From: a virus
Lineage: Duplodnaviria; Heunggongvirae; Uroviricota; Caudoviricetes
Strand: one strand, 5' to 3'
IMG/VR virus record: IMGVR_UViG_2565956727_000003
Location: 1-36,978 of that record
Length of the DNA: 36,978 nt
Part shown: in pieces, positions 21,701 through 27,700 of the stretch
How the letters are laid out: each line of letters starts with the position of its first letter
Numbering within the stretch: position 1 is the stretch's first letter
Made by a program: the position numbers

Positions 21701-24700
21701 CTCTACAAGCTTACGCGATAAGCTCATTATGTTATTCGCTATGTTTTCCATGAGGGTACATTACGAAGCAAAATGCTTAAGCACGCCACAGAGCTAGGCT
21801 CTACTTTGATGCTCTAATAACATTCGATTATTTGCATTTCCTGTTGCATTAGCGACCTGCCATTGAGGAGTAAAAATGATCCATACGGTACATTTTTTGA
21901 CAGATGTTACAGTTGCCTCTGTAACTAATCTGATGGATGTCTGCTTAAAAGCAGTTTCAAATACTAATCAACCAGCAACAGAAATTAAGCTCTATATTTC
22001 CAGCAAAGGTGGAGATACAGTTTCAGGCTTTACTGCTTACAATTTTTTAAAGTCACTTGGTGTAAAGGTTACTACGCATAACCTCAGTAATGTTGAATCA
22101 ATCGCAAACGTGATCTATATGGCTGGAGAAGTGCGAACTGCCAACCCACTTTCTCGCTTCCTTCTTCACCCACTGCATTGGGGGTTCGCCGCACCCAGCG
22201 CAGATCACCTACGATTGAGAGAATGGGCTTCATGCCTCGATGACGATCTAAATCGATTTATTCAAATCATGGATATTGAAACAAAAAAGAAAAATCCAAG
22301 TGAGATTGCTGATTGGAAGGATTTGATCACTTCGGCAACCATCCTTCATCCCGGAAGGGCCTCCGAGTTGGGAATTGTTCATCAAGTCGAGGCTGCAACC
22401 ATACCCACGGAATCGATCCGCTGGTGGGTACTTTAAAATCATAATATTCACCATAATGCGAGCTTAGAAGCCCGCTCTTTTTTCTCAGCCTGCCTGATAT
22501 CAGCCTTATCCCGATTGCACTGGCCAAGTGCCGATAGCAGACTGACATTTAAATTAAGACTATTACCCCATGTCATATTATCCGGAATGTCAGGATAAGG
22601 CGTTTCAGCCGTCAGGGTGGCTGGTAACGGAACCACCGGAATGCTCACGTAAACTGTTCGCGTACTTCCGCAACCGCTCAGCAGCGGCAGCAGGCACAAG
22701 GCCTGCAGCACAATCATCATCCGCAACAGCCACTTTGATATCTTTCTGGGTTCTCTGTGACTCCAGTGCGATCTGCTGTTTTGCATGCTGGTTAACCTCT
22801 ATAACTGTATTGACGAGTTGCAGTGATTGCAGGACGTTACGGGTAATGGCTGTTGCAGATTCAGCATTTTGTACAGCCTCATCAGCACGTTTCTTTTCGT
22901 GCTGATATTTGCTGTAGTAGTGGTTGGCAGACCAGATGAAAGAACCAATGACAGTAAAGAAGAATGCGGCGATAACCAGCTTATAGCTCAACTTCATTTA
23001 CCACCCCACCTGCCTCTTTAAACCGGGAAATCAGGTCACTGATTTTATGTTCATACTGACCGTAACCTGCACCAGGTAACGACGCCCAGATATTGCTGCA
23101 ACGATCGATAGCCTGACGGATATCACCGCGATCAATCATCGGTAAAGCGCCACGCTCTTTAATCTGTTGCAATGCCACAGCATCCTGGCTTTTGGGAGAG
23201 AAGTCTTTCAGGCCAAGCTGCTTGCGGTAGGCATCCCACCAACGGGAAAGAAGTTGATAACGGCCTGCAGCTGTTGACTTGAGTTTCGGATTTAGCGTGA
23301 CAAGTTTGCGAGGGTGATCGGAGTAATCAGTGAATAGTTCACCACCAACAATAACGTCATAACCGTGGTTATGTGTCGGTTGTCGCCCGTTATCCGTTCC
23401 CTCTGACCATGCCACCATATCCAGGAAAGCTTTACGCTGGGAATTTAGTACCTGCATAAATTACTCCTTAGAGCCACCAAACTTATTACCGATTACTCTC
23501 ATTGCAGCCCCACGAATAGCATCGACACCGATCAACCCAACGCCACCACCAATGGCAACAGAAAGCGATTTAGGCCATCCGACATACTCAAGAGCGGATG
23601 CAAAAGTCAGCGTCAGAGCGCCACAGAGTAGAATTTCGAGTGTTTTTCGCTTCCAGCCGCCACCACCGCCAAAATAGGCAATACGTAAACCAGCCATAAC
23701 AATCGACATAATCACTGCGCCCAGCGGTGTGTCTCCACGCCACCAGCTCTGGACCAAGTCCAGCCAGGTATTTGGGTTATGAGGCATTTCGTCATCTCTC
23801 ACCTCGCGATATTTGCGGGTACTGTGAAATAAAAAAGCCGCCAATTATTTGGCGGCTTTCAATAAAAAAGAAAATGTTATCGGGGAAGGTGTTGCTTTGG
23901 TCCTTCCCAACTGAAGGAATTAAAAACTTTTTGGATTAAATTTTGCAACTTTGCCAAAGACTCTGTCGAAATATCTACTTCACCATAATAGCCATCAGCC
24001 ATAGTGCACCCAAATTTAGTTCCGAATAAGTTATTCAACATCAATGCCCCCTGAGGTGCAACAACATGAATATTATTTACAGGTTTGAGTTTTATTGGCC
24101 TTGGTTCTTTCTCTGCACCAAGCCCACGAACTCTGTCTTCCATGTGTTGAGCTGAATTCCTTACCTTTCTTAAATCCGGAAAGTCTTTAGAAAGCTGTTC
24201 ATGCAATTTTTTAATGTTCTCTGGCGCGCCATTTTCTTTTGAAATTACCTTTAAAAATTTATCAATAGCATCCAAAGCGTAGAGAAATGATTTTGCATGT
24301 AAGAAGATCAATCTGTGTTGATGAGCCAACGGATATTCACCGTTATTCCATTTTTCTCTTTTTAGACGTAGCTCGACCTCTGAAAAAACCTGTTCTGAAT
24401 ATTCATAAGGTTGATAACCAAACTCTTTACGAACCAGCATTTCCAGTGCTTGTCGTTTCTGTACATCAGCTTGCCATGTCTGAGAAATATTATCGAATTT
24501 ACTGTTATTCTTAGTTCTTTCCTGTTCAAATAAATTTAATGCTACATTAGCATCATAAAATGCAGTTTCTAAATGGGATAATAAGTTATTAAACGTCCAT
24601 TCTAACTCTCTGTTTTCAAACTTAAGATTACTGCCTGGCTTGATTAACTCAAAAACATACATTTTTTCGACCCCTAGTTGTATGGTCGAATAATTATATT

Positions 24701-27700
24701 ACTAATTAATACCGTCATTCTGTTTTTACACAATAAAAAACCCGCTCAATGGCGAGTTCTTGAAGGTTATCAACAGCAGATACATAAAGCCCATCGTTGA
24801 GAAAATCTTATCCATGTTTTTTGGAAATTGCAAGCATCATGTCACCATTTTCGGCGAAAATCACTTATCTTGTCACCTTTCTCAATTGTGCTTCAGCGTA
24901 AGATTCCTCCTGCCAGCACTTTGTAACCAGTTTATCAATGACATCTGCATATCCTTTGTACCACTGATAATCCGTCAGGTCTGGTACCAGTTTCTGGACA
25001 TGATGCCGCGCCAGTGTGGTTGGTAAACGGCTAAACCGGTTACCATTGCAACGCCCACAAATCTTATAAACAGGCGTACCATGAAGCCGGGTTCTTTTTT
25101 CATCCAGGACAATACCTTTACCCTTACACCCTCTGCACGCTGTGCTGACTTCTCCCTTACCATGACAATGCTGACATAGTTCCTTCACCCACTCTTCCTT
25201 GATAACAGACTCCCCGCTTCTGGAGTGTTTCACCACTTCGCGCAATACATTATGAAATCCAGTACCAGCACAATGCTCACAGCGAGCCTTACTTGCCGCA
25301 GACCTGGAATAATCAGCAAAGGCAAAATTCACAAGGTAAGGAATGATCTGTAGCCGGGTTTCTTCACTCAATTTATTCAATGTCGGGTTATCCAGTGCCA
25401 TCGCGTAATTGAGCAGACCTTCAATCGCAAACTGAGGATCCTGAACACCAACTTTTGCCAGGAATAAGGCAAACCCAAGCGGTGCTTTCGACTGCACCAT
25501 CCCCTGCGCAGCCATCACATCTGTAATTGTTAAACCACCCGAGCCTGTCGCCGGTACGTCATCACTCAATTTTGGAGATTTTGGGGAGTAATATTTTGGT
25601 AAGGCTTCAAGGTTCATGCTCGTTCTCCACTTACGCCAGTACGCCTATTGCCAGCGCACGATCGATAAAACGAAATATCAGCTCCAGCTGGGAGCCATAC
25701 TTCTCTTCAAATGCCACGGTATCCGCATGCAGCTCGTCGTGATGCTTTCTGCACAAAGGCAACACAAAGAGGTCATGCGCTTTTGTTCCCATTCCACCCT
25801 GACCGTGACCTATCAGGTGGTGGGGATCATCAGCGGGCTTTCCACAACATGCACACGGCTGTGTCTTAACCCAGCGCGTGTACTTTTCATTAACCCAGCG
25901 GCGACGTTTTGGGCGTAACATAAAAGACTCCGGCGACTCCGGATCCACTTTCAGCGCCAGCACCTTTTTCGCCTTATCCTGGATGATGCTGGTGGCAGGA
26001 ACCGAAGGCACAAGGTCACTTTCCCGGGTGACAGACGGCACAACAGGCTTCGGTAATCTCAGTGCCTTACGGGCTGCACTTTCCGGTAAGGCATCCGCCA
26101 GGTCATTACGAATCAGCCACCAGCACAGTTCCGGCATTGTCACAACGTGACTGTCATCAAAACCGAGATCCCGACGCACAACAGACAACACCCAGCGGGC
26201 ACAGTTATCCGTTGCCATTGATTCCAGCCGTTCCGTGAACTGATCGCGCAGCTGGTTATCGCAGTGCCAGCACAGACGGATTGCGCCCGGAGCGTGTCGC
26301 ATTGTGGTCATGTTCTCGCTGTGCCAGTCGGAATGAGGCCACTGGCAGCCATTTTCACGAAGTAACCAGCTTTCAAGACATTCCACGCCACCAGCACGAC
26401 GGATCACTGCCTCATTGCGGAACACGGCCCGAACGGCAGGATCATCCGCCAGCGGTTGTGATGCCGCCGGAACGGCACCACTGGCGAAAGATGAATAACG
26501 TTCCGGCTCAGGCTCCAGCAGGACACGCCCCTGCATAAACAGGGGCATCAGCTCTGAACCTGGCCTGAACAATACGATCCCCATACGCGGGGCAATTTCA
26601 GGGGTCAGTAGTGCTCTCACGGTCACCTCAATGAACGGTATCGAGCAGCTTTAACAGCTCAGGGAATCGGGATTCGAAGAAATGCGGCTGCGTCTCGCGC
26701 GGATTTGCAGGACTGGTGATGTTCTTGCCGAACATGCAGCCTTTCGCCGTCAGCGACCAGAATTTTTTGATGTTATTAATCGCGGTACGGCTGTATCGTT
26801 CGCGCTGTTCGACGATCCCCAGTTTCACCATCTGGTGATATGCCTGATTAGCTGTCAGGCGGATACCATACTGCTTCAGCAGTGCACTCAGTGACAGCGT
26901 GGGGCGGCTTGAGCCATCAGGCGCGTCAGCAGGAGCATCAATGGCATAGCGCGGTGCCAGATTCGGTAAGCCAACAGCCTCCTGGAGTTTCTGACAGGCA
27001 CCAAGCACTGAAGAGTTAGACAGGTTTAACTCCCTGCGCATAAAGTCCAGCAGAATCACACCAGCCTGCATCTTGTCAGCAGCCTGCCCGGATAATTTTT
27101 CCGGTGCGCTGGTTACCATATCGAAAGTACGGATCACCTTTAGATGGAATGACGGGCTGATCCACATTGCATAGGCATACACCAGTTCTTTGCAGACATA
27201 CGTTCCCCGTTCATTTCCCCCATGAATCACACTCACCGGGTCAACACCCAAATTCTGGGTGTTGGTCAATTCATGAACAAGCTCAACAGTTTGTTGGCTG
27301 GAAAGAAACTTTCCTGGCTCCTTGGTTCTGGCATTTGCACCAGATGCTACTGCTGCGCGATGCAGATCGTTCAGGCTGTAACGTCCATAAGCATCACGAC
27401 GAACTTCAATACCATCAATGACCATCAGATTATTCATACTTCGTTTCTCCTCTTGATCAGGCGGCTGCACCCGCCGTTTTCTAGTACTTACTGATAGTGA
27501 TCTCGACCTTCCCTTCCGGGATAACCGGTCCCCACTCCACCAGCATTCTTTTCACCTGACTGTCGTCTTCCCACACCCCCGCGTAGGTCAGGGCGTCAAA
27601 CAGCGCCTTGTTATAGTTGTCCAGATCGCGGATCCTGTTATCCGGAGGAAACAACACGATCTCCACTGAAGCAGGTGCCGACGTTGGTTTCGGCAGACGA

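Follow-up and report, generated by a model that had tools for sequence, protein, structure and literature searches.

The window analysed here is a stretch of 36,978 nucleotides (nt), covering positions 1 to 36,978 of the IMG/VR record IMGVR_UViG_2565956727_000003 (a virus of the Caudoviricetes), in which a gene for a 261-amino-acid (aa) protein lies between the antiterminator gene Q and the lambda-family holin gene S. The best explanation for this gene is that it represents a horizontally acquired, self-contained cargo cassette (a moron) occupying the Q-holin slot of an SfV/e14-like Escherichia coli prophage. Its product is most likely a single-protein anti-phage defence factor, a reading in which the fold assignment and the function are unproven, and which draws on the foreign base composition of a single-gene cassette, the conservation of a sequence motif across a large protein family, the residence of this family on mobile elements and in defence islands, and a defence call made by a machine-learning model. 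We also propose, more tentatively, that the protein is a stand-alone abortive-infection-type HEPN-like RNase, expressed in the lysogen and triggered by phage; taken as a whole chain, this proposal is given slightly less than an even chance.

A single-gene cassette of foreign composition between Q and the holin gene

Both boundaries of the slot were identified from profile matches (Table 1), and the Q gene is annotated as an antitermination protein in NZ_CP042585. Past the holin gene come a lysozyme gene and spanin genes. The start codon of the 261-aa open reading frame (ORF) is supported by its homologues, which begin with M-[YF]-[IV]-F-E. A search with a 1.2-kb region of the window showed 100% identity to a prophage located beside yejO/narP in E. 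coli LD91-1. This prophage encodes an HK97-type head and a contractile tail, and its copy of the 261-aa gene is annotated as encoding a hypothetical protein (WP_023277813.1). The complete stretch from Q through the gene to the holin was detected in just 22 of 5,426 complete E. coli genomes.

Nucleotide comparison with related phages delimits the insertion: on the holin side, homology to mEp460, SfV, and SfII ends at around position 23839, and on the Q side, homology to phage Tritos begins at around position 24779. The resulting 940-bp cassette contains a single ORF, with a guanine-cytosine (GC) content of 35.8% compared to 50.2% for the window. Together with the PF03589 and PF05106 matches of the flanking genes, this confirms the description given in an earlier reading of the same DNA made without database searches (the "sequence-only reading"), namely an AT-rich 261-aa gene between Q and the holin gene. 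That reading had also called for a comparison of Q-S cargo across related prophages, which revealed that the slot is filled differently in related phages, where mEp460 has a Dam methyltransferase and Tritos has CspB, and that five more prophage loci (six including the window) encode homologues of the 261-aa protein between Q and the holin gene. These homologues, 51-61% identical to the window protein, are found in four Klebsiella pneumoniae prophages and one other E. coli prophage, and the prophages carrying them involve three Q families (including PF06323 and PF06530) and three holin families (including Phage_holin_2_3 and Phage_holin_8).

The Klebsiella loci are laid out as Q, terminator, tRNA genes, an AT-rich stretch with TATAAT and TGnTATGAT elements, the gene, a second terminator, and the holin gene. 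In these four prophages, the tRNA genes come after the Q terminator and precede the homologue by ~220 bp, and correspond to Thr-UGU in three prophages and to Asn-GUU plus Arg-UCU in the remaining one; the window itself is devoid of tRNA genes. This order mirrors the tRNA-then-stx layout of Stx phages, and we speculate that the upstream tRNAs could matter if the 261-aa protein were a tRNA-targeting nuclease.

Stx phages carry stx in the Q-S slot, and the cassette shares with lambdoid Q-S morons in general (stx1/stx2, Dam methyltransferase, cspB) its location, a deviant GC content, a candidate -10 element of its own, and a terminator of its own, along with, in the case of stx, the tRNA genes seen directly upstream in the Klebsiella relatives. 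The 261-aa cargo is, however, unrelated to Shiga toxin and belongs to a family found mostly outside of pathogens and phages.

A widespread family of solitary genes on mobile elements and in defence islands

The only library match of the 261-aa protein is phrog_5322, a family of unknown function. Searches with the protein against Pfam, NCBIfam, PADLOC, and PDB sequences returned no match, in agreement with the initial remark that it contains no recognisable domain. The family itself is large, with 375 homologues retrieved in a large-database search, and 986 clusters at 50% identity in an exhaustive profile search, 447 of which were below an E-value of 1e-30. Among the top 150 clusters, most sequences are about 250-285 aa long and display a single full-length match, and an added domain was found in none. 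Hosts include Gamma-, Beta-, Alpha-, and Deltaproteobacteria, Campylobacterales, Bacteroidota, and Acidobacteriota, with further copies on a Deinococcus plasmid and in a phage of Marinitoga (Thermotogota), and several of the carriers are environmental and non-pathogenic, including Limnobacter, Psychrobacter, Desulfuromonadales, Idiomarina, and Polaribacter. Copies from distant phyla are 42-48% identical, which indicates horizontal spread of the family.

Gene neighbourhoods were surveyed across 56 species-level loci by considering all ORFs within 2.5 kb. No neighbour family was common to more than five of the 56 loci, and the ones shared across loci (ABC ATPase, GNAT, endolysin, NlpA, and PurD) correspond to unrelated housekeeping or phage-lysis genes. 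Similarly, no nucleotidyltransferase antitoxin of the kind found in HEPN-MNT pairs (HepT-MntA) was detected, either in the one-ORF cassette or as a conserved neighbour in these loci. Outside of the Q-holin slot, the family gene is found on pA53P1, a 4.2-kb Psychrobacter plasmid with no other cargo and otherwise only Rep and MobA/MobC, is also carried by other small plasmids, and occurs as a cassette of a Vibrio parahaemolyticus superintegron, near an AbiV cassette. In Aeromonas, it adjoins SIR2-like genes in a satellite-like integrase/VapE island, and additional copies were found beside HEPN_AbiU2 and AAA_21/RloB in a Pseudomonas island, with Xre-RES and a type I restriction-modification system in a Desulfuromonadales island, beside DUF262 and HipA on an Azospirillum plasmid, and beside PIN-Phd in a Limnobacter islet. 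Such contexts are typical of mobile defence cargo.

The protein is also listed, under exactly the same accession (WP_023277813.1), in Table S10 of the DefensePredictor study (DeWeirdt et al., Science 2026, PMC13092281), a table that covers 3,000 E. coli strains. There, it is classified as a "Predicted novel defense gene" with a mean log-odds score of 10.06 (standard deviation 0.83), for a strict cutoff of 4, and displays no HHblits homologue among known defence proteins (PMC13092281). The protein is known as a prediction only. Neither its accession nor the PHROG identifier was found in the main texts of the literature, and six family peptides, taken from the motif region and from helix 1, were absent from the searched tables of the same study (PMC13092281).

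A conserved motif on a predicted helical bundle

The R-N-x3-H motif reported for the 261-aa protein by the sequence-only reading is present (LRKVRNSAQHMEDR, R168...H173), and is conserved among homologues. Across 91 diverse representatives, 29-50% identical to the query, R168 was found in 89 sequences, N or D at position 169 in all 91, and H173 in 90, and conservation extends to the three residues E/D175 (90/91), D/E176 (88/91), and R177 (88/91). In members at ~25% identity, the corresponding stretch reads VRNSIAHFEDR (Marinitoga phage), ARSAALHPEDR (Deinococcus), and VRDSIQHTHER (Azospirillum). A motif not conserved among homologues had been named by the sequence-only reading as refuting its proposal, and this outcome was not observed. 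The R-[ND]-x3-H of the family fits the published HEPN signature, i.e., Rx4-6H in which the residue following R is N, D, or H (Anantharaman et al. 2013, PMC3710099). Many HEPN families also include a second acidic residue upstream, usually as E-x3-[KR] in helix 2 and spatially near the motif (PMC3710099), for which D131-x3-K135 is the candidate counterpart here, with a D instead of the typical E. The superfamily is further characterised by dimers that bring two motifs together and by endoribonuclease activity independent of metal (Anantharaman et al. 2013).

The sequence-only reading had further argued that two proteins with R-N-x3-H in a single prophage were unlikely to arise by chance. This argument proved weak because the pattern occurs five times in the stop-free segments of at least 80 aa of the window, and the pair was hence ruled out as a statistically remarkable feature; the weight of the motif comes from its conservation among homologues, not from the bare pattern.

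One very distant member, MPV1_37 of Marinitoga phage MPV1 (3911-4525 of its locus, L013), is located between tape-measure and tail genes of this Thermotogota phage and is truncated to 204 aa. Most of the N-terminal helical hairpin is missing from this protein and the motif is kept, which suggests that the family core may extend from the helix starting at residue 112 onwards. A bridging search initiated from this member recovered just three Marinitoga proteins, none of which has a Pfam domain.

An AlphaFold2 model, obtained from a 49-sequence alignment (predicted local distance difference test [pLDDT] of 88.9, predicted template modelling score [pTM] of 0.83), displays a short N-terminal strand and is then helical up to residue 178, with helices at residues 18-54, 59-81, 90-106, 112-142, 149-160, and 164-178. 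These are followed by a low-confidence loop (residues 171-190, pLDDT of about 60) and a small strand-rich domain that includes a helix at residues 233-249. The motif is predicted at the C-terminal end of helix 164-178, which is broken at H173 and runs into the low-confidence loop. In HEPN domains, the motif is found at such a helix end, and the surrounding region is often distorted, for instance in 3jrt (PMC3710099). In this model, helix 112-142 may correspond to HEPN helix 2, residues 149-178 to a kinked helix 3, and residues 233-249 to helix 4 following a beta insert. Fold searches revealed a generic four-helix-bundle similarity in which HEPN structures are among the matches without being singled out, as they rank no clearer than designed bundles, p130Cas, CheA-P1, or hemerythrins. 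We consider the predicted fold as compatible with HEPN, with membership suggested rather than demonstrated. A mean-field direct coupling analysis of helix packing, based on 264 family sequences, was discarded, as it was dominated by indel and gap artefacts.

Expression signals around the gene

The perfect TATAAT, good Shine-Dalgarno sequence, and strong hairpin terminator described by the sequence-only reading are all present around the gene (Table 1). TATAAT hexamers occur only six times over the two strands of the window, for 11.6 expected, and a promoter belonging to the gene itself is plausible but unproven. TATAAT and TGnTATGAT-like elements are found at the corresponding place in the Klebsiella loci. 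For the terminator between the gene and the holin gene, none of 200 shuffled sequences was equally stable, and a counterpart follows the homologue in K. pneumoniae prophages. The perfect palindromic stem of the window terminator, 11-12 bp long, has A-runs upstream and U-runs downstream, so that this terminator could act in both directions. Its left arm overlaps a TTG-started long form of the holin (23461-23844) found in a mechanical ORF listing, and hence the ATG at 23787, where RefSeq begins the holin, is probably the true start.

On the Q side, the weaker hairpin upstream of the gene is a candidate tR'-like terminator of a short late leader, and an equivalent terminator is found just after Q in the homologous K. 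pneumoniae loci. The promoter-like site overlapping the end of Q is a candidate for the late promoter pR', and its position agrees with the usual location of pR' in lambdoid phages.

Table 1. Coordinates of the features discussed in the text, given on the window except for the tRNA genes, which are given on the respective K. pneumoniae loci.
Feature	Coordinates	Strand	Basis or description
261-aa ORF	23877-24662	minus	phrog_5322 family (E 4.3e-140); predicted N-terminal helical-bundle domain and small C-terminal alpha/beta domain
Antiterminator Q gene, upstream boundary of the slot	24865-25617	minus	PF03589 (E 6.9e-54); phrog_127 (E 5.7e-109)
Lambda-family holin S gene, downstream boundary of the slot	23461-23787	minus	PF05106 (E 3.3e-25); phrog_126; RefSeq coding sequence coordinates
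AT-rich cargo cassette (moron)	23840-24778	minus	Borders set by loss of homology to related phages; GC 35.5% vs 50.2% for the window
Codons of R168-N-S-A-Q-H173-M-E-D-R177, motif R-[ND]-x3-H with [ED][DE]R extension	24132-24161	minus	Family alignment
Codons of D131-x3-K135 in helix 112-142, candidate second (acidic) active-site element	24258-24272	minus	D131 in 81/91, [KR]135 in 82/91
-10 hexamer TATAAT, 30 nt before the ATG	24693-24698	minus	Read directly in the sequence
Shine-Dalgarno AGGGGT, 7-nt spacer to the ATG	24670-24675	minus	Read in the sequence
Strong intrinsic terminator between cargo gene and holin gene	23833-23860	minus	12-bp stem, U-run on both sides, free energy -18.7 kcal/mol, z -5.7
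Hairpin and U-run upstream of the gene	24736-24761	minus	10-bp stem, free energy about -11 kcal/mol, z -1.5
Promoter-like site GTGACA-18-GAAAAT over the end of Q	24847-24876	minus	Consensus scan, 9/12 matches
K. pneumoniae prophage tRNA genes	L005 5706-5781; L006 5705-5780; L007 5706-5781; L008 5624-5780		

Comparison to known systems

HepS, encoded by Salmonella prophage Gifsy-1, is a solo HEPN protein (R100-H105) that is constitutively expressed as an inactive tetramer, and that cleaves tRNA anticodon loops once protein J of the siphovirus tail tip triggers it (Sargen et al., Nature 2026, PMC13043305). Like HepS, the 261-aa protein is a single-gene, partner-less accessory cargo of a lambdoid prophage that carries R-N-x3-H, and the logic proposed for it would be alike, with constitutive expression of an inactive protein, and with RNA cleavage and abortive infection set off by a component of the phage. 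The two proteins differ in size (212 aa for HepS vs 261 aa), with a long N-terminal helical hairpin and a C-terminal alpha/beta domain predicted here, and in the position of the motif (residues 100-105 for HepS vs 168-173). HepS is weakly resembled not by the 261-aa protein, but by another RNx3H protein of the window (21249-21797).

Motifs of the RN...H type are also found in the Abi_2 class (AbiD/AbiD1/AbiF, PF07751), AbiV, and AbiU2 (PMC3710099), all of which are, like the family described here, (near) stand-alone and plasmid- and prophage-borne. Unlike these, however, no match to PF07751, PF18728, or PF18734 was obtained for 53 family members or for the family consensus, and hhalign comparison with AbiU2 and AbiV examples yielded probabilities below 1%. 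The integron HEPN family (Vpc_cass2, 3jrt) similarly occurs as a mobile single-gene Vibrio integron cassette, and the helix around its motif is distorted (PMC3710099), as in the AlphaFold2 model; with 166 aa and no extra domains, it differs from the 261-aa protein, to which no sequence or profile match was found at E<=10. A further HEPN-only system, designated "Esos", is named in a Vibrio integron study.

Proposed function and alternative explanations

Under the HEPN proposal, a weak sigma-70 promoter of its own would drive transcription of the gene in the lysogen, with the strong terminator insulating the gene from the lysis genes, and upon induction the gene would also be included within the Q-antiterminated late transcript. 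The product would be a soluble protein acting without a partner, whose helical domain would bear the HEPN-type signature (D131-x3-K135, then R168-N-x3-H173), and whose C-terminal alpha/beta domain and conserved N-terminal strand may form a built-in regulatory or sensor module. It may form oligomers, and would remain inactive in uninfected cells until infection by a competing phage switches it on via the non-catalytic part. Once activated, it would cleave RNA (tRNA, rRNA, or mRNA), so that translation stops and the infection is aborted.

Several observations weigh against this proposal. The Q-S position corresponds to late lytic expression, which fits a phage-serving function, and for spacings of 16-18 nt no -35 hexamer with at least 4/6 matches precedes the TATAAT, which a two-hexamer promoter scan did not call. 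The sequence-only reading had presented the gene as an autonomous moron at an stx-like position; the cargo cassette, the slot, and the terminator bear this out, and its promoter comes down to a TATAAT with no acceptable -35, the use of which is unproven. D131 and K135 are absent from the three most distant members. At the profile level, no match to Pfam HEPN families was obtained with 49 members (E<=10), four distant members (E<=5), or the consensus (E<=10), and PADLOC and NCBIfam provided no link to HEPN or to any known defence protein. In the Pfam, NCBIfam, PADLOC, and PHROGs scans of the protein, these members, and the consensus, phrog_5322 was the only family recovered. PDB searches with the sequence, two family alignments, and the motif-region consensus gave chance matches alone (choline kinase, SRP54, IFT88), and HepS (9oij), which was present in the searched set, was not matched by the 261-aa protein or its profiles. 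Comparison of the family profile by hhalign to the AbiU2 neighbour, the AbiV cassette, the 182-aa RNx3H protein of the window, and the HepS-like family profile of the latter yielded probabilities below 1%, and Foldseek searches against PDB and BFVD returned nothing at E<0.03. As for the machine-learning prediction, the overall validation rate of DefensePredictor is only about 45%, and the 261-aa protein is not among the transcription units that were cloned or validated (PMC13092281). The suggestion of a single-protein HEPN-type abortive-infection factor, first made from the sequence alone, is favoured by a solitary gene, a conserved motif, and defence-type contexts, and stands without a profile link to HEPN; the structure prediction that had been recommended alongside profile searches did yield a helical fold, with HEPN structures among generic bundle matches.

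The absence of detectable homology to any HEPN family also favours a stand-alone defence or conflict protein that is not an HEPN RNase, in which the R/N/H/E/D/R cluster would form another catalytic or ligand-binding site on a generic bundle, for example that of a metal-dependent hydrolase involving H173/E175/D176/D131, or a nucleotide- or protein-binding switch. Genomic context and DefensePredictor evidence fit such a protein equally well, the fold matches are generic bundles that include hemerythrin and other metal-binding bundles, and the invariant [ED][DE]R after the His lies outside of the canonical HEPN signature. We nonetheless regard this explanation as unlikely, given that R-[ND]-x3-H, in its spacing and in having a polar residue next to R, reproduces the HEPN signature exactly, and that a single conserved His is atypical of His-rich metal sites.

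A phage-serving lytic role, in which the protein would act as a Q-controlled late host-takeover, counter-defence, or competitor-exclusion factor and not as a lysogen-expressed defence, is harder to reconcile with the distribution of the family. Many members are located outside of phages, on small plasmids, in an integron cassette, in chromosomal islets, and in defence islands, where a late-lytic role would make no sense. In addition, terminators are found on both sides of the gene, with a strong one downstream, as expected of lysogen-expressed morons, and the high defence score was obtained from a model trained on defence genes. This role would be consistent with the finding that at least six prophage loci have the gene inside a Q-dependent late operon, with the K. 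pneumoniae copies placed directly after phage tRNA genes as is stx in Stx phages, with an own promoter limited to a -10 match, and with the Marinitoga phage homologue found amid tail genes, yet we consider it improbable overall.

We hold a similarly low opinion of a selfish stabilisation or stress-dormancy RNase toxin, which would contribute to element maintenance or host dormancy with no role in phage defence. Such a role was proposed for integron HEPN domains by Anantharaman et al. (PMC3710099), and would fit a family gene that occurs as an integron cassette, is the only cargo on a mobilisable plasmid of 4.2 kb, and lies beside toxin-antitoxin modules on other small plasmids. However, no conserved protein antitoxin partner was identified across the 56 loci, and a search of the cassette for an RNA antitoxin or structured RNA revealed no repeats, with Rfam matches that were sub-threshold and located on terminators. 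A toxin without an antidote cannot be an addiction module, and HepS illustrates that a solo HEPN protein can be non-toxic until triggered (PMC13043305). Finally, the gene occupies the genomic slot of stx, which would suit a virulence or fitness factor for lysogenic conversion that, like Stx, is expressed or released upon induction. This is very improbable for a predicted soluble helical protein whose sequence shows by eye neither a secretion signal nor a transmembrane segment, and whose family occurs in environmental non-pathogens and in a thermophile phage.

Returning to the HEPN proposal, if true, a large, widespread, and unannotated family would join the short list of single-protein, partner-less abortive-infection nucleases, in which HepS is the one prophage member with a solved mechanism, and the lambdoid toxin slot (Q-S) of E. 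coli, Klebsiella, Citrobacter, and their relatives would also serve as a hotspot for defence cargo. A self-contained protein of 261 aa with R168, H173, and D131 as candidate catalytic residues would be easy to test, and could provide a new trigger-effector pair. If the protein is not HEPN, the strictly conserved motif would mark an active site worth solving. The protein has already been flagged computationally as defence by DefensePredictor, and a defence function would not be surprising to specialists. A bolder extension, which we deem unlikely, is that phrog_5322, whose clusters at 50% identity number about a thousand and come from six or more bacterial phyla and a Thermotogota phage, constitutes an unrecognised sensor-effector immune class. 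Its catalytic helical domain would descend from no described HEPN family, being either a new and extremely divergent clade of HEPN or an R-[ND]-x3-H-x-[ED][DE]-R site reached by convergence, and would be joined to a novel C-terminal alpha/beta sensor. Through its recurrent location in the Q-S slot, the gene would be expressed twice, weakly in the lysogen and as a Q-dependent burst on induction, and would thereby also act in prophage-versus-prophage competition.

Additional ORFs of the window

The other RNx3H protein of the window (21249-21797, plus strand) is 182 aa long and belongs to phrog_5483. Its sole PDB sequence match is HepS (9oij), with an E-value of 0.053 for the protein alone and 0.0034 for a 16-member family profile. 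The stretch FRNKRSH aligns with the catalytic IRNKYAH of HepS (R100-H105), and we consider this match as borderline. The family of the 182-aa protein is small, with 16 clusters. The gene is followed on the same strand by a gene for a 186-aa ClpP-like protease (21876-22436; PF00574, E 2e-12), and the pair, with a GC content of 41-43%, is encoded on the strand opposite to the late genes, between the spanin and HNH/terminase genes. PADLOC returned no match for these two genes, which from their sequences look like a two-gene cargo module (21249-22436) combining a HepS-like protein with a Clp protease.

The most AT-rich part of the window (GC of about 31%) contains a very hydrophobic ORF of 355 aa (1324-2391, plus strand) beside tail-fibre-like genes, which by eye resembles the acyltransferase-3/O-antigen acetylase serotype-conversion genes of SfV-like phages. 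At the window edge, an ORF of 257 aa (1-774, plus strand) displays an N-terminus that appears GIY-YIG-like by eye (YVYRL...).

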